The position numbers and the translations under genes were made by a program. Below, in pieces: positions 3,109 to 32,929 of a stretch of DNA of 64,000 nt; the first letter of the stretch is position 1, and each line of letters starts with the position of its first letter. This DNA is from a virus (lineage: Duplodnaviria; Heunggongvirae; Uroviricota; Caudoviricetes). The notes under the pieces are model-generated. The model was given only the letters and a program-made list of their open reading frames with translations, did not search any database and had not been told where the DNA came from. Location of the stretch: positions 1 to 64,000 of IMG/VR virus record IMGVR_UViG_2851976983_000001. One strand, written 5' to 3'.

Positions 3109-3531
3109 ATGAAATACTCGCTTCTCCCTCTACTAACGTTACCAGTGTTGATGCTTACCGCGTGCCAATCACGCCCAATATCAATCCATGACGCCAAACC
3201 AGCACCGCAGGCCAAAGTGTTCAAGTATCAAAGCGCAGCGCCAGCTACGTTGGTGGTAATGAGAGACACAGGTTTTGTAGGAGCTGGATGTGATGCTTCC
3301 ATTTTCATCAACGGCGAAACTGTCGCAAAACTGGCTACAGGCGAAAAAGCGACTTTCCATTTAAATGCCGGAGAATTAATTGTGGGTGCATCTCTTGAAG
3401 GTGCAGGTTTATGTGCTCTAAACCCCGCTCGTCAAGAGCGAGAAACGACTCTGAAGAATGGAGACACAAAAGCGTTCAGGGTGTTCACCAGCAATTCTGG
3501 TGACATCGACATTCTGCCAACAACTCTGTGA
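3109..3531 (+). CDS. putative lipoprotein
   Basis: Internal Met start MKYSLLPLLTLPVLMLTAC gives signal peptide plus lipobox LTAC; the longer track ORF from 3067 is probably an N-terminal over-extension. Confidence 0.55.
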   Translation: MKYSLLPLLTLPVLMLTACQSRPISIHDAKPAPQAKVFKYQSAAPATLVVMRDTGFVGAGCDASIFINGETVAKLATGEKATFHLNAGELIVGASLEGAGLCALNPARQERETTLKNGDTKAFRVFTSNSGDIDILPTTL

Positions 3532-27322: not shown

Positions 27323-27423
27323 TATGCTGTCAGCGGTAATTGATAGTCTGTCAACGGTTCGCCGTATGCTGCCAACTGTTTTTGGTATGCTGCCAGCGGC
27401 AAATCAAGTATGCTGTCAGCGGT
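27323..27423. repeat. RepA iterons, upstream set (4 copies)
   Basis: GTATGCTGTCAGCGGT-type 16-mers at 27323, 27364, 27385, 27408. Confidence 0.8.
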
Positions 27424-27443
27424 TGAATGACAAAGGTGTCCAC

Positions 27444-28538
27444 ATGTCCACAAAAAATAAAAAAGGTAAAAATAACAAAGAAGTAGAAGATAATCTCGAC
27501 AACTTTGAAGAAGGTTCCCTTGAATTGTACACAGGGGAACTTGTCCCTAATAGCAACAATACAGTCCAACCAATTGCGTTGATGCGGCTGGGATTGTTCG
27601 TGCCCACGCTCAAGGGGACAAAATACAGCAAGCGTAACAAGCCAAATGAGATCGATGCTTCAAAGGAGCTTGTTCAGCTCGAAGTAGCCCGTTCTGAAGG
27701 CTATTCCGATATCAAGATAACCGGTCCTCGTCTCGACATGGATCATGATTTCAAAACGTGGGTGGGCGTTGTGCGTTCGCTGGCAGAATACGGCGAACCT
27801 AACGGTCGTGTCGAGTTAAGCATCACGAAATTTGCGAAGTTTTGTGGCTATCCATCGTCACAGATCCGCAAAACACTCCGCGACCGGCTTACAAACAGTC
27901 TTTTGAAGATCATGCGTACAACTCTGTCTTTCCAGAGAACGTATGAAGAAAAGAACGTCGACGGCTCTAACAAGATCTCGCTTCTGATGGTGCACCTCAT
28001 CAATAGCGTGGACTACAACGAGCAGAAAGATACGGTGGTGTTCTATGCAGAACCGAAGCTGGCCGAACTATATCGCTTTGACCATAAGGTTCTTTTGCAG
28101 TTAAAGGTTATCAATAAGCTACCACGCAAAGAAACAGCACAGGCTCTGTACACCTTCATCGAAAGTCTTCCAACCAAGCCTGCGCCGGTATCGCTTGCTC
28201 GATTGCGTGCGCGACTCAATTTGAGTAGCAGGAATGTCAGCTCGCAGAATCAGACTATACGTAACGGCTTAAAAGCTCTCCAAGATTTGGGCTATCTCGA
28301 ATACAGCGAGATTAAGCGAGGGCGGTCGATCTATATCCAGATTCACAGCCGCAATCCAAAACTTAAAGTCGCACCGCCAAAACCTGAAGACATCGAACCC
28401 AAAAAACCAGATGAGAAAGCCGGGGAAATTGATGCTAAACAGAACATTATCAACAAGATAACTGAACTTTCGCAGAATTTGACGCCTGAAAATATCAAGA
28501 TGATTGAGATCCTTTCCAATAGTCTCAAACTGCTTTGA
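27444..28538 (+). CDS. repA: iteron-binding replication initiator RepA (P1/P7 RepA family)
   Basis: Segments NSNNTVQPIALMRLG, KITGPRLDMDHDFKTW and HSRNPKLK match P1 RepA as I recall it; iterons on both sides; start at MSTKNKK with AAAGGTG RBS. Confidence 0.8.
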   Translation: MSTKNKKGKNNKEVEDNLDNFEEGSLELYTGELVPNSNNTVQPIALMRLGLFVPTLKGTKYSKRNKPNEIDASKELVQLEVARSEGYSDIKITGPRLDMDHDFKTWVGVVRSLAEYGEPNGRVELSITKFAKFCGYPSSQIRKTLRDRLTNSLLKIMRTTLSFQRTYEEKNVDGSNKISLLMVHLINSVDYNEQKDTVVFYAEPKLAELYRFDHKVLLQLKVINKLPRKETAQALYTFIESLPTKPAPVSLARLRARLNLSSRNVSSQNQTIRNGLKALQDLGYLEYSEIKRGRSIYIQIHSRNPKLKVAPPKPEDIEPKKPDEKAGEIDAKQNIINKITELSQNLTPENIKMIEILSNSLKLL

Positions 28539-29070
28539 TATGCTGTCAGCGGTGAAATGTATGCTATCAGCGGCTATTTTTCTGAAAAGTATGCTGTGAA
28601 CGGTTAAAGATATGCTACCAGCGGTATAGTGAGATAAACGTATGCTGTGAGCGGTAAATCATCTATCACCACTCAATGCTCTTTTATACCTCCCCAGTGG
28701 TTACTAACCTCGAAGAGTGCATTCCATATAGGTTTGCGCTCACTAACATTCTATTCCCATTGCGCTGATTACTTGTAGTGAAAGGTATTTATTGCCTGCT
28801 GCTCCCTGATAGAACGTATGCTGTCAGCGGTGTTTTATTGAGGAATTTTTGTTTGGATATGCTATCAGCGGTAATTAATGGCATATATCAGACCTTCGTA
28901 TGCTGCCAGCGGTAATTTTGTTCTGGTTATACCCATACCGATACACATTATTCATGCAATGTCTTAAGTATGCTGTCAGCGGTAAAAAATCGAGTAAAGT
29001 ATGCTGTGAGCGGTGAGATAGACTCTCGATATGCTATCAGCGGCAGTTGATTGTGTATGCTGTCAGCGGT
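28537..29070. repeat. RepA iterons, downstream set (12 copies in two clusters)
   Basis: (G/A)TATGCT(G/A)(T/C)(C/G)A(G/A)CGG(T/C) at 28537, 28559, 28589, 28610, 28641, 28816, 28857, 28898, 28968, 28999, 29030, 29055; begins at repA stop codon. Confidence 0.8.
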
Positions 29071-29117
29071 GACGACTATGAAATATGACTGCGGAACGTG
29101 CCGCAGTCAGTTTGCAT

Positions 29118-29330
29118 TTAGTGTATTTTCTTCAACAGACCCCAAAGTGTTCCGGCTTTTGTAGTCAGTTTTCCTGTTTCTGGATCGTACATACGCCATT
29201 CACGCCGCTGGTGGACGATATACCCATCTTCACGTTCCAGACGCTCAAGAATGCCAGGCTGCTTGAAACCCTTAGCACGCCAGTATCCGCTTGTTTTCTC
29301 GATTTCCAGACCTGCCAGTGTTAATGCCAT
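29118..29330 (-). CDS. hypothetical small protein (70 aa)
   Basis: ORF in co-directional string after the iteron array. Confidence 0.4.
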   Translation of the reverse strand: MALTLAGLEIEKTSGYWRAKGFKQPGILERLEREDGYIVHQRREWRMYDPETGKLTTKAGTLWGLLKKIH

Positions 29331-29665
29331 TATCCAACCTCCTTGCAGTCATCGAAAAGGTAGCTTTGCTGAGAAGCGTGAACGCCATAGAAGCCCTTGT
29401 ATTTGTTGTATACGAAGTGGTCTTCTCCGACGCCGGTTAATTTGCCATTACGGTTTGTGAGATATGGGGATGACAACACTCGATCGTCACGCACAACATA
29501 GAACTGGTCGCCGCTGTCTACGACCATCGCTCCATATGGTGCTTTTATGACGTCGGCAAGAGCGCCATTCTTAACGTCGGCTACAGACATTTCACACTGA
29601 TAAACAGTGGTGTCGGCCACAACGATCGAGGAAAGGAACAACAGAGTGAATGGGATGGCCTTCAT
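29330..29665 (-). CDS. secreted hypothetical protein (111 aa)
   Basis: N-terminal signal-like MKAIPFTLLFLSSIVVA. Confidence 0.45.
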   Translation of the reverse strand: MKAIPFTLLFLSSIVVADTTVYQCEMSVADVKNGALADVIKAPYGAMVVDSGDQFYVVRDDRVLSSPYLTNRNGKLTGVGEDHFVYNKYKGFYGVHASQQSYLFDDCKEVG

Positions 29666-29839
29666 GCTGCCACCTCTTTGATTACATCAAATGCTGAATT
29701 AAATACGAGCACGATAGCCAAAGCGTTTATGACTACGTCGTTCACCGGGGAAAAGACTTTACGAATGACACCGGTGAAAATGCAGTCGATGACAAAAGCT
29801 ATTGAAACGATGAGTAACAAGTATTCAATAAAAATCTTC
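29663..29839 (-). CDS. small membrane protein (58 aa)
   Basis: Hand translation MKIFIEYLLLIVSIAFVIDCIFTGV...; ATGA overlap with downstream gene. Confidence 0.35.
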
Positions 29840-29880
29840 ATGATAGGTAGATACTAACTTATATAAATTTTACTGTAAAC

Positions 29881-30211: not shown

Positions 30212-30637
30212 TCAATCTTCTTGTTTAGGGAAAAACTGTTCAATAACTCTGTCAACGGCTGTGTCTATATGGAGTAGATGCCACACAACCATATCTTTGC
30301 TTCCCATGCCTTGTGTGAATATCACGTCATACTTACGCCATGCGCAGTGGAACCAATATGCTGAGTCATCAATTGGTAAATCCTCTCCCGCCTCTTTGAA
30401 GTATTTCAGCAGCATTGCCTGCTCTGCCGTTGGCGTTGGACCTATTTCCTGAGCGTACATACGGATGAATCGCTGCCAGTCTGTCTCGTCGGGGGTTGGA
30501 TCTGGTGGGGTCATTTCTGCGATAGCGTTTCGTAGCTGATGCGCCCAATCAGGTTCAGGAAAGCCTTTTGCTACTTCATCATCAATAACATCCAGAGCCA
30601 CGTTTGCGGCATCGTAGAGTATCTTAATAGCTGTCAT
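30212..30637 (-). CDS. hypothetical protein (141 aa)
   Basis: ORF with AAACAAATTGTTTTCTT motif upstream. Confidence 0.45.
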   Translation of the reverse strand: MTAIKILYDAANVALDVIDDEVAKGFPEPDWAHQLRNAIAEMTPPDPTPDETDWQRFIRMYAQEIGPTPTAEQAMLLKYFKEAGEDLPIDDSAYWFHCAWRKYDVIFTQGMGSKDMVVWHLLHIDTAVDRVIEQFFPKQED

Positions 30638-30728
30638 GTTTTCTTATCCTTTTAAACAAATTGTTTTCTTAATAAGATAATTGCGATAAAAAAGGCGTCC
30701 AACTGGACGCCTGAACTTTTTAGGGGAG

Positions 30729-31559
30729 TTATTTCACTGTAATGAAAGGAGTGTTAGCCCCTTGAGTCATGTACTGCGGTAACTGGCCATTCCATTTATT
30801 GATGGCTTCCAGTTCCATAACGTTCGGGTTTTGACGCAGAGCTTCACCGCGCAGACGAATGGCGTCTGCTTCTGCTTGCGCACGAGCACGGATAGCATCA
30901 GCTTCACCATTAGCCTGTTCACGTAGCATATTCGCCTCAGCTTTACGCTGTTCAACTTCCTGCTGACGTTGCAGAGTACGCTGGTTAGCCGTTACTTTGG
31001 CGTTAATAGATTCAATGACGGTTTTTGGGTAATCAGGCTTTCCAACCCATGACAGGCTCAGTACCTCAATACCAACCGGAGACATCTCTTTCTGAATATC
31101 TTTCAGTGCGTTGTCCAGCAATTGTGCCTTACCACCGTCGATAAATGAGTCAGTGGTCATACGGCTGGCCAAACGGTTTAGAGAGTCGGCAATTTTCTGA
31201 CGCAGATCTGATTCGGTGATATCGTCTACGCCTTTGCGATAGGTCTGGAACACCGTCGTTACCTTGTCACGATTAACCAGATACGCAACGCCAATTTTGT
31301 GACCAATAGCAGTACCGTCACTCATCTGGAATGTGAACGGTTCGTCGTAGGTCTTCATTTGTTTGAAGGTCGGGAATACGTAAAGTTCGGTGTTAAGACC
31401 TGTCCATTGGCGACCAACGCCAACCACTTCACCAATCCCTTTGTCTTCACCTAATTTGTTTACTTTGATGCCAACGTATCCAGGCTCCACGCGATCACAG
31501 CCAGTAAGACCCATTGTGCAAATAGCCGCCAGAGCAACTGCAAGTAAACCTTTCTTCAT
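30729..31559 (-). CDS. lipoprotein, possibly SPFH/band-7-like
   Basis: Signal peptide with lipobox LTGC; central domain then Ala/Gln/Arg/Glu-rich coiled coil as in HflK/C-type proteins; family call tentative. Confidence 0.45.
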   Translation of the reverse strand: MKKGLLAVALAAICTMGLTGCDRVEPGYVGIKVNKLGEDKGIGEVVGVGRQWTGLNTELYVFPTFKQMKTYDEPFTFQMSDGTAIGHKIGVAYLVNRDKVTTVFQTYRKGVDDITESDLRQKIADSLNRLASRMTTDSFIDGGKAQLLDNALKDIQKEMSPVGIEVLSLSWVGKPDYPKTVIESINAKVTANQRTLQRQQEVEQRKAEANMLREQANGEADAIRARAQAEADAIRLRGEALRQNPNVMELEAINKWNGQLPQYMTQGANTPFITVK

Positions 31560-31562
31560 TAC

Positions 31563-31763
31563 TTATTTCCCCTTTGCTTTGATTAATGAGTTAATAAACT
31601 TACGACCACCAATAAGACCGATTACTGGAGCGCCAAAACCAACGAGAACTCCAAGCATGACGGCCAAATCACTCTTTGCAGAAATCAGCGACGGAACCAG
31701 TAATCCGTAGATGAGAGCCACTGAAAGGCCTGTGGCTACTGCCAATAGATAGATTTTGATCAT
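31563..31763 (-). CDS. small two-helix membrane protein (66 aa)
   Basis: Two hydrophobic segments; start preceded by AGGAAAACAC-ATG motif; directly upstream of the lipoprotein gene. Confidence 0.45.
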   Translation of the reverse strand: MIKIYLLAVATGLSVALIYGLLVPSLISAKSDLAVMLGVLVGFGAPVIGLIGGRKFINSLIKAKGK

Positions 31764-31855
31764 GTGTTTTCCTATGTGGTTGTTATGTGAAAATGATAAG
31801 TAAGCACTTATATATTTTCAAGAGATAAAAAAGGCGTCCTGTGGACGCCTTGTGT

Positions 31856-32929
31856 TTACTCTTCTACTGACTCGGTGGGATTGTCTTTTGATCTCCGGTC
31901 GTCGATTGCCTGTAAAGCCGCAATGATTTCAGCTAGTGGCTTCTCCCGATACATCTCGACGATCTGTGATTTGGTGTATTTCTTGTCACCAATTTCTACT
32001 CGACCGCTGGCGTTCTTTGGCAGGTATCCTTCTTCCAGCATGTACTCGACGAGCGACTCGATAACGTCGAGGCCACGAGTAGGATCGAAGTAGAATTTCC
32101 AGGTGCATTTGCCATACGGTGGTGCAACTTTGTTTTTGATGCACTCTGCGCCTACGTCCTGACCGATCTTCTCTTTCCCATCCTTCATCACCGATGCACC
32201 GAGACGGATGCGCACAGAAGCGTAAAACTTCGGTGAATCGCCGCCTGGAGACGTAGTAGGGTCGCCAAACATTACACCGATTTTTGTGCGAACCTGATTC
32301 AAGAAGATGATGCAGGCGTTGTATTTGCGTGCCCACAAAGCCAGAGTAGGGAAGTTCGCACTCGTCGCACGAGCCAGTGCCGTATTGTCGTTCATGTTTA
32401 GCTGATCTTTGTCTTTGGCTGTGCCTTCAGCCATCTTTTCGAACTTCTCGGCTTTGGAGTTCGGAACCATAGACGCAAGAGAGTCAGCCACGATACAGAT
32501 AGGTGCTGATTCGGGGATAAGCTCTTCATCACGAACCAATTTAAGTATTGTGCCGATCAACTCTACAGAGTCTTCGAAGGTATCTGGCTGCTTGTATACC
32601 CACTGACCGTCATCCTCATCTGCGTTCAGGCCATTGGCTACAGCCAGGCCAACGTCAAAACTGTTTTCATGATCGAGGAATACCGCCAGACCATCTTGTT
32701 TTTGAGCGGAGATCATCGCTGCTGTTGCAAGGAACGTTTTCCCCGCGCTTGGTGGCCCGAATACTTCTACGATACGACCACATGGGAAACCGCCATCGTA
32801 ACGACCGGAAATAGCTTTGTTTAACGGAGGAAAGCCTGTGTCAATCCAATGAGTTACTTTCTGAATTTCGTCGTTGCTACCGATTTTCTTTTTCAGAGCA
32901 AGTGCCAGTGCGGATTTTCCTTTTGCCAT
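31856..32929 (-). CDS. RecA/UvsX-like recombinase
   Basis: Walker A GPPSAGKT, RecA-fold core, Walker B-like CIVAD. Confidence 0.8.
   Translation of the reverse strand: MAKGKSALALALKKKIGSNDEIQKVTHWIDTGFPPLNKAISGRYDGGFPCGRIVEVFGPPSAGKTFLATAAMISAQKQDGLAVFLDHENSFDVGLAVANGLNADEDDGQWVYKQPDTFEDSVELIGTILKLVRDEELIPESAPICIVADSLASMVPNSKAEKFEKMAEGTAKDKDQLNMNDNTALARATSANFPTLALWARKYNACIIFLNQVRTKIGVMFGDPTTSPGGDSPKFYASVRIRLGASVMKDGKEKIGQDVGAECIKNKVAPPYGKCTWKFYFDPTRGLDVIESLVEYMLEEGYLPKNASGRVEIGDKKYTKSQIVEMYREKPLAEIIAALQAIDDRRSKDNPTESVEE

Follow-up and report, generated by a model that had tools for sequence, protein, structure and literature searches.

A putative self-contained cassette of an SSU5-like phage-plasmid pairs an SPFH-domain lipoprotein with a small membrane protein

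Why would a phage-plasmid carry, among its replication and recombination genes, two genes whose products appear to belong in a membrane? The question is raised by positions 30,729 to 31,763 of a 64,000-nucleotide stretch of Caudoviricetes DNA (positions 1 to 64,000 of IMG/VR record IMGVR_UViG_2851976983_000001, hereafter the window), which is part of a ~108-kb SSU5-like Escherichia coli phage-plasmid. An earlier note, made from the sequence alone, had read this interval as a gene for a 66-residue two-helix membrane protein followed directly by a lipoprotein gene whose product has a coiled-coil tail of the SPFH kind. It had also supposed that the two proteins work together and had seen no obvious place for them in a replication module. 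Our analysis leads us to regard the pair as a self-contained moron whose products would form an HflK/C-like cage with an anchor subunit in the inner membrane and would condition that membrane of the host, a reading to which we assign a probability of roughly 0.6.

The coordinates in the note were exact, and both genes lie on the minus strand, which it had left unsaid. The 66-residue open reading frame (ORF) is upstream and the 276-residue ORF is downstream, as follows:

31563..31763, minus strand: small membrane-protein gene (66 aa), from its ORF and hydropathy
30729..31559, minus strand: SPFH/Band 7 lipoprotein gene (276 aa), from Pfam, PHROG, AlphaFold2 and Foldseek
31569..31574, minus strand: Shine-Dalgarno-like AAGGGG, within the end of the small ORF and 9 nucleotides ahead of the lipoprotein ATG

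The spacing suggests that the lipoprotein gene is translationally coupled to the small gene, because the stop codon of the small ORF lies only 3 nucleotides before the lipoprotein ATG. In relatives, the two ORFs overlap by 4 nucleotides (P88), 8 nucleotides (N4-like Jura) or 20 nucleotides (P1-like, with a 78-residue small ORF). Judging by the PHROG matches and the many homologues of the lipoprotein, neither gene is a chance ORF.

To what family does the larger product belong? The SPFH identity proposed in the note was borne out, as the lipoprotein matched Pfam Band_7/SPFH (PF01145) with E=2.6e-30 and 106.2 bits (cut-off 23.6) across profile positions 2-176 of 176. It is also a member of PHROG 200 'lipoprotein' (3e-108), has 570 homologues at E<=1e-5 among 8000 candidates scored, and belongs to a family with 2816 cluster representatives at E<=1e-3. 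We obtained an AlphaFold2 model of the monomer from a 72-sequence alignment, with a mean predicted local distance difference test score of 83.9. In the model, a signal helix is followed by strands (residues 21-95), helices (97-159), a further strand (164-176) and a helix (179-243), after which come a short helix and a flexible tail. The coiled-coil tail that had been noticed from the letters is this last long helix, which is continuous in the model.

30933..31493, minus strand: SPFH (Band 7) alpha/beta domain, residues 23-209 by Pfam
30831..31025, minus strand: long C-terminal helix, residues 179-243, one uninterrupted helix in the AlphaFold2 model

As modeled, helix 179-243 corresponds to the coiled-coil helix that forms the wall of SPFH cages. 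The tail beyond it contains the motif W256-x-G258-x-x-P261, in which W256, G258 and P261 are invariant in the 72 sequences. A Foldseek comparison of the model with the PDB gave HflK as the best match (7vhq_E, 1.6e-14) and aligned 260-300 columns, essentially the entire chain, with a probability of 1.00, to HflK, HflC, PHB1/2, erlin1/2, stomatin, flotillin and QmcA. All of the matched chains are subunits of solved SPFH cages. Orthology to HflK/HflC, FloT or QmcA was considered and rejected, since the scores are well short of the cut-offs and the family lies no closer to any one of them than to the rest. The NCBIfam profiles for HflC (TIGR01932) and HflK (TIGR01933) gave 30.2 and 18.7 bits over partial regions (cut-offs 134.4 and 159.4), Pfam Flot (PF15975) gave 19.9 bits (cut-off 27) and NCBIfam FloT gave 16 bits (cut-off 700). 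The family sequence profile matched QmcA, HflK, HflC and prohibitin about equally weakly, with QmcA the best in the PDB at 2.3e-7. No second SPFH gene was found in the cassette and its neighbourhood, which thus hold one SPFH gene and no K/C pair.

The 66-residue protein (MIKIYLLAVATGLSVALIYGLLVPSLISAKSDLAVMLGVLVGFGAPVIGLIGGRKFINSLIKAKGK) has two hydrophobic segments by hydropathy, spanning approximately residues 1-29 and 31-53. It belongs to PHROG 1130 'membrane protein' (5e-25), which PHROGs places in the category 'moron, auxiliary metabolic gene and host takeover', and a profile search returned 211 homologues, all of them unnamed or called 'membrane protein'. Almost the sole conserved part is the loop, with the motif ...Y-G-L-L-V-P-S-L-I-S-A-K-S-D..., and P24, S28, G38 and P46 are invariant in an alignment of 11 free (unfused) small proteins. 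Between P88 and the window, the small proteins share 27% identity and the SPFH proteins 77%. Because almost nothing else in the small protein is conserved, the loop is an obvious candidate for a contact surface with the SPFH protein.

Evidence that the two proteins belong together came from gene order and from natural fusions. A small ORF bearing the motif stands immediately upstream of the SPFH gene in 53 of the 68 distinct contexts that we sampled, with SPFH identities as low as 38-41% in partner-bearing contexts. The small ORF is directly upstream, often with an overlap, in SSU5-like and P1-like phage-plasmids, P2-like P88, Stx phage phiP27, the coliphage N4 family (gp19/gp20), a Cohaesibacter prophage and jumbo-phage metagenome contigs; in PVP-SE1 the homologue is one gene removed. 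The phiP27 homologue, of 62 residues, lies at ~3310-3500 of NC_003356 directly upstream of the L05 'lipoprotein' gene and is unannotated in the reference record. A supposed loss of the partner in a Shigella flexneri/E. coli chromosomal prophage was rejected, since the pair there is split rather than partnerless: an insertion of ~770 bp with IS1 InsA/InsB-like ORFs lies between the small and SPFH genes and truncates the end of the small gene.

Fusions of the small protein to the SPFH protein account for at least 18 cluster representatives (50% clustering level) and further profile-search matches, and in all they occur in more than 20 protein clusters. They are 330-390 residues long and are laid out as a small-protein homologue, a basic linker, a hydrophobic segment with an invariant Cys, and the SPFH domain. 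Their N-termini align to the small protein and keep the motif P-x-[LM]-[IV]-S-[AS]-x-[SD]. One of them, a Rhodopseudomonas palustris protein that NCBI calls a 'prohibitin family protein', is encoded in a prophage next to an integrase gene, and in its model the SPFH domain is preceded by an N-terminal membrane-anchor region with three helices. The lipobox Cys and a full signal-peptide-like segment are invariant ~75-120 residues into the fusions (P0136, P0370 and others), and internal processing of the fusions by Lgt/LspA is a possibility. The conserved adjacency and the natural gene fusions support the small protein as a genuine SPFH partner, as the earlier note had supposed. The NfeD identity that the note had marked for checking did not hold up and was rejected: Pfam NfeD (PF01957) did not match the small protein at E<=1, the sole Pfam match being DUF1427 at E=0.76, and a protein of 66 residues filled by two transmembrane helices has no room for an oligonucleotide/oligosaccharide-binding (OB) fold.

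On which side of which membrane would such a complex lie? The lipoprotein begins MKK-GLLAVALAAICTMG-LTGC21 (N-terminus MKKGLLAVALAAICTMGLTGC-D), with a basic n-region, a hydrophobic core (h-region), a lipobox near residue 20 that fits [LVI][ASTVI][GAS]C, and Asp at position +2.

31497..31559, minus strand: signal peptide (residues 1-20) and lipobox Cys21 (codon 31497-31499), read from the sequence
31494-31496, minus strand: codon of Asp22, the +2 residue, a predicted inner-membrane retention signal

Cys21 is invariant in the 72-sequence alignment. Among 97 close enterobacterial homologues, the lipoboxes LVGC, LTGC and LSGC predominate, and the +2 residue is Asp in 88 of the 97 and Glu in 5. 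Asp at +2 is a Lol avoidance signal that blocks Lol sorting in E. coli. We infer that the 276-residue protein is lipidated at Cys21 and retained in the inner membrane by Asp22. For the small protein, we predict an N-in/C-in topology with the conserved loop in the periplasm, because the C-terminal tail (RKFINSLIKAKGK) has five basic residues and the loop is near neutral (positive-inside rule). The fusions bear on the same point. With their basic linker in the cytoplasm, the third helix must leave to the periplasm, as a signal peptide does; a three-helix anchor can leave the SPFH domain on the non-cytoplasmic side only with the C-terminus of the small protein in the cytoplasm. Asp +2 and the fusion topology together argue that the SPFH domain lies at the inner membrane and faces the periplasm, which would be the orientation of HflK/C and the opposite of that of QmcA.

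The pair is further set apart from its surroundings by its boundaries, which comprise the following features:

31793..31821, minus strand: predicted sigma-70-type promoter of the cassette (TTGAAA, 17-nucleotide spacer, TATCAT; 10/12 consensus positions)
31824..31851, minus strand: intrinsic terminator of the upstream recA/UvsX-like gene, stem AAGGCGTCC-ACA-GGACGCCTT, then TTTTTTATC; left bounding repeat
30685..30712, minus strand: intrinsic terminator of the cassette, stem AGGCGTCC-AGTT-GGACGCCT, then TTTTTATC; right bounding repeat
30685..31823, minus strand: insertion/deletion unit of 1139 bp with promoter, two genes and terminator; its length is the repeat spacing (31824-30685)

The promoter hexamers are near-invariant in 10 diverged SSU5-like relatives in which the adjoining 3' coding sequence of the recA-like gene varies, and we infer promoter activity from this TTGAAA-17-TATCAT arrangement. 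Both hairpins share AGGCGTCCA...GGACGCCTTTTTTATC, and a common 16-mer, GATAAAAAAGGCGTCC, occurs at 31824-31839 and 30685-30700. The hairpin GGCGTCC-N-GGACGCC has 2 occurrences in the 64-kb window against 0 expected. Both hairpins are kept in the 10 relatives, one of which has a compensatory stem change in the recA-side terminator. In E. coli D4 plasmid A (NZ_CP010144), with flanks 97.7% identical, the recombinase stop codon is followed by a single terminator and then directly by the DUF7238 leader; the 1139-bp unit is exactly the extra DNA relative to this empty site. The site is also empty in Cronobacter pCS1, Enterobacter plasmids have a P22 NinX-family gene in place of the cassette, and the recA-like/DUF7238 intergenic site (30640-31855) is a variable slot in SSU5-like plasmids. 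The N4-like gp19/gp20 genes are likewise bracketed by annotated terminators, and 193 PLSDB plasmids carry the cassette. Base composition gave no sign of foreign origin (46-48% GC in the cassette, as in the flanks).

The cassette thus has the marks of a moron, namely a predicted promoter and terminator of its own and insertion between genes that are adjacent in relatives. Insertion of a moron with its terminator and deletion between repeated terminators would each yield this pattern. Whichever the origin, replication and maintenance can do without the unit. From this sequence comparison, the pair is an accessory cassette outside the replication module, in agreement with the doubt raised at the outset about a replication role.

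The distribution of the SPFH gene is wide. A tblastn search found the protein in 413 phage records. Temperate carriers include phiP27, Stx2a phages, P88, and P1-like and SSU5-like phage-plasmids; strictly virulent carriers include the N4 family, PVP-SE1-like, LUZ24-like and FelixO1-like Erwinia phages and phiCbK; Lak megaphages and crAss-like phages carry it as well. The family is largely a phage gene, since the three distant members that we traced to long contigs all lay in phage or prophage DNA (3/3). Its annotation varies from record to record ('lipoprotein', 'SPFH domain-containing protein', 'band 7 lipoprotein'). Some records are labelled 'serine protease', 'putative transposase' or 'transposase fusion protein', and the domain content suggests that these labels are propagated annotation errors. 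We also considered whether plp/upl of P1 represent the pair and rejected this, since P1 plp encodes 125 residues on the opposite strand and is hence unrelated; the P1 essentiality data (PMC10695390) are inapplicable to the pair for the same reason. The SPFH gene itself is already known as an annotation, with the PGAP name 'SPFH domain-containing protein' in hundreds of records, and a 2009 classification of SPFH proteins does not mention lipoprotein or phage members (PMC2636767). What we add is the non-NfeD partner with its loop motif, the Rosetta-stone fusions, the inferred topology and the bounded moron with a natural empty site. The link between PHROG 200 and PHROG 1130 was unrecorded among the annotations examined here.

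How might the pair work? In the mechanism that we favor, the cassette would be transcribed from its own sigma-70 promoter and end at its own terminator, with translation of the SPFH gene coupled to that of the small gene. The 66-residue protein would cross the inner membrane twice with both ends in the cytoplasm and present its P-x-L-I-S-A-x-S/D loop to the periplasm. The 276-residue protein would leave the cytoplasm, receive its lipid at Cys21 and, because of Asp +2, stay in the inner membrane, so that the SPFH domain and the 65-residue helix would lie on the periplasmic face, on the same side as HflK/HflC. Both products would then act as one inner-membrane complex. If the SPFH protein behaves like all those of its architecture with solved structures, it would oligomerise into a closed cage that fences off a patch of inner membrane holding the small subunits and possibly host client proteins. 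The role would be to condition the inner membrane of the host, both while the plasmid-prophage is carried and during infection, by gating or protecting membrane proteins as HflK/C do for FtsH, with no part in DNA replication. Among the roles that we weighed, a generic part in conditioning or protecting the inner membrane comes first, being somewhat more likely than the others; superinfection exclusion and mimicry of the FtsH regulators fit less well.

Several points weigh against this mechanism. Cage formation is drawn from the similarity of the modeled monomer fold. The partner is absent in LUZ24-like TL, phiEa104 and phiCbK, and Bacteroidales relatives (<=30% identity) have a different neighbour, of 108 residues. 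Recombination can exchange the SPFH gene without the small gene, as in Cyrano (99.5% versus 78% nucleotide identity to the window), which argues against tight pairwise co-adaptation. The residue at +2 is mostly Ser in non-enteric homologues, so that retention there is not arguable from the Asp +2 rule. Lastly, we found no functional study of a phage SPFH protein in the full-text literature, and a 2026 genome paper states that why phages carry the SPFH gene 'remains unclear' (PMC13239085). As to Cyrano, a comparison with the window shows a mosaic in which identity falls from 99.5% in the SPFH gene to 78% in the small ORF and 74% in the upstream region; this sharp boundary implies recombination at about the junction of the two genes.

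A more specific proposal, which we hold as tentative, is that the pair constitutes a phage-specific two-component SPFH system. Here, a lipid-anchored periplasmic cage would surround a two-transmembrane subunit that replaces NfeD, and in some lineages both would be made as one precursor whose internal lipobox is cut by signal peptidase II. Phages from many families could rely on such a system, in the course of infection, to divide the host inner membrane into compartments, for example by caging a host protease or transporter or by sealing the membrane against the DNA of incoming phages.

Superinfection exclusion is an unlikely explanation, even with a number of observations in its favor. It would have the lipoprotein and its partner block incoming genomes at the inner membrane, as do T4 Imm/Sp, P22 SieA and the Gram-positive Ltp. 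Injected DNA crosses at the predicted site, the outer face of the inner membrane; the moron-type cassette with its predicted host-type promoter would permit expression in the carrier state; the PHROGs category of the small protein includes moron and host takeover; and the pair occurs in temperate and virulent phages alike, as exclusion genes do. In Vi01-like phages, an SPFH gene even adjoins an annotated superinfection-exclusion gene (PMC3220722). However, the conservation pattern is unlike that of fast-evolving, phage-specific exclusion proteins. The SPFH protein is under strong purifying selection (95% amino acid identity at ~80-85% nucleotide identity) and is common to phages with very different entry machines and hosts. 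Neither protein matched any of the 5027 defence models of PADLOC-DB v2 at E<=1, and a known anti-phage defence system was rejected on the same result.

Less probable still is that the SPFH protein mimics HflK/C on host FtsH, altering the turnover of CII-like regulators, LpxC or membrane proteins and biasing the lysis-lysogeny decision or host physiology. The best structural matches are indeed HflK/HflC in FtsH complexes and the prohibitins, which gate m-AAA proteases, the protein is predicted to lie on the HflK/C side of the membrane, there are weak NCBIfam matches to HflC and HflK, and the authors of a Burkholderia phage genome have speculated about HflC-like control of lysogeny (PMC10269572). 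Those matches nevertheless stand at 30/19 bits for HflC/HflK against cut-offs of 134/159, and at the sequence-profile level QmcA is just as near to the family as HflK/C or prohibitin. In place of a K/C pair there is one SPFH gene, and it carries a predicted lipid anchor rather than the FtsH-contacting transmembrane helix. The gene is also common in strictly virulent phages, which have no lysogeny decision to bias.

We consider it very improbable that the lipoprotein is an outer-membrane or vesicle protein acting as a lysogenic-conversion or virulence factor like PM0222 of Pasteurella multocida, a 25-35 kDa prophage HflK/C-like protein of outer-membrane vesicles that signals through TLR1/2 and whose deletion attenuates virulence (PMC9872710). 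The window lipoprotein is similar in size and also lies on a prophage-like element, but membership of PM0222 in its family is unconfirmed, an Asp at +2 should hold a lipoprotein in the inner membrane of E. coli, both the partner and the fusions are predicted integral inner-membrane proteins, and virulent environmental phages have the gene as well. A role in lysis timing, in which lysis is delayed because a cage holds holin or antiholin back in the inner membrane, would fit a predicted inner-membrane, periplasm-facing protein of many lytic phages, including the N4 family, and the fact that SPFH proteins organise membrane microdomains, but it is equally improbable, with the pair lying among early, replication and recombination genes in the window, P88, phiP27, N4-like Jura and PVP-SE1 and no lysis gene annotated in the flanks examined of those five genomes. 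N4 is known for delayed lysis, which we counted for this explanation.

The genes around the cassette in the window encode RepA, with iterons, a UvsX/RecA-like recombinase, an exonuclease and SSB. The repA-like gene (27324..28538) belongs to PHROG 775, and directly downstream of it, at 28537-29084, are at least 10 iteron-like repeats with the core (G/C)(A/G)TATGCTGTCAGCGGT, presumably the replication origin and copy-control array of the phage-plasmid. Downstream on the minus strand, two further small genes of envelope type encode a 111-residue protein with an N-terminal signal-like sequence (29330..29665, PHROG 2077) and, at 29662..29841, a 59-residue hydrophobic protein (PHROG 2535). The cassette terminator is upstream of a DUF7238 gene (30212..30637). 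Between the two, at 30640-30684 on the minus strand, is the near-palindrome AAGAAAACAATTTGTTT, which is kept in all aligned relatives, empty-site plasmids included, and may be an operator or promoter element of the downstream gene.

On the other side lies the recA/UvsX-like gene (31856-32929, 357 aa), and its copy in the window has no intein. The same gene is ~2340 nucleotides long in Cyrano and many plasmids, where it is annotated as 'intein-containing recombinase RecA' or 'LAGLIDADG family homing endonuclease'. The match of the window recombinase to PHROG 9666 (779 positions) is confined to profile positions 487-779. Yersinia pestis pMT1-type plasmids (96-107 kb) have a recA-like gene with ~83% nucleotide identity to that of the window, and the complete SPFH cassette stands on a 108-kb contig of the Y. 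pestis NCTC5923 assembly, where it encodes an SPFH protein with 94% identity to that of the window.

SPFH proteins, among them stomatin, prohibitin and flotillin as well as HflK/C, are universal membrane organisers, and recent cryo-electron microscopy shows that they form cages. A gene kept in hundreds of Gram-negative phages and phage-plasmids (413 phage records, 193 plasmids) presumably pays for itself. The locus supplies handles for its study: a two-gene unit, a candidate loop motif, fusions that fix the topology, and natural plasmids with and without the cassette. A two-component SPFH system, if indeed present, would give a viral SPFH protein its first described function. Should the complex cage a host factor such as FtsH, or block DNA entry, it would represent a new phage route to manipulate the host envelope; as a generic membrane stabiliser, it would be of routine interest.

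How does the pair compare with known systems? Its direct homologues are the PHROG 200/1130 genes (N4 gp20/gp19, PVP-SE1 gp118/gp116, phiP27 L05 and the 'putative SPFH domain protein' of P88), which have the same gene order, SPFH protein identities of 47-79% and no structural distinction from the window genes. With other phage morons, the cassette shares a predicted promoter and terminator of its own, insertion in a conserved module, a presence/absence polymorphism and a spread across unrelated phages; it differs in having two coupled genes rather than one and a duplicated bounding terminator, which could equally mediate loss by recombination.

Among cellular systems, HflK/HflC (7vhq, 7wi3, 9cz2) have the same succession of an anchor, an SPFH domain, one long helix and a C-terminal tail, and the orientation on the periplasmic face that we predict for the window protein. 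The sequence identity, in contrast, is 16-18%, there is one gene instead of a heteropair, a lipid is the predicted anchor where HflK/HflC have an N-terminal transmembrane helix, and the 66-residue partner has no counterpart in HflK/C. The prohibitin PHB1/2 and erlin1/2 cages are comparable in fold and length (Foldseek 5e-14 to 1e-13, TM-score up to 0.62), and NCBI labels distant family members 'prohibitin family protein'; their identity is 15-18%, and the membrane, the type of anchor and the heteromeric composition differ. Lastly, the SPFH-NfeD operons (QmcA-YbbJ, 8z5g; YqiK-YqiJ; the archaeal stomatin PH1511-PH1510) likewise join an SPFH gene to the gene of a small membrane partner, which is co-transcribed and thought to sit with the cage. 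Unlike theirs, the partner in the window has 66 residues and neither an NfeD domain nor an OB fold, and the natural fusions place it at the N-terminus. QmcA and stomatin face the cytoplasm, whereas the SPFH protein of the window is predicted to be exported.

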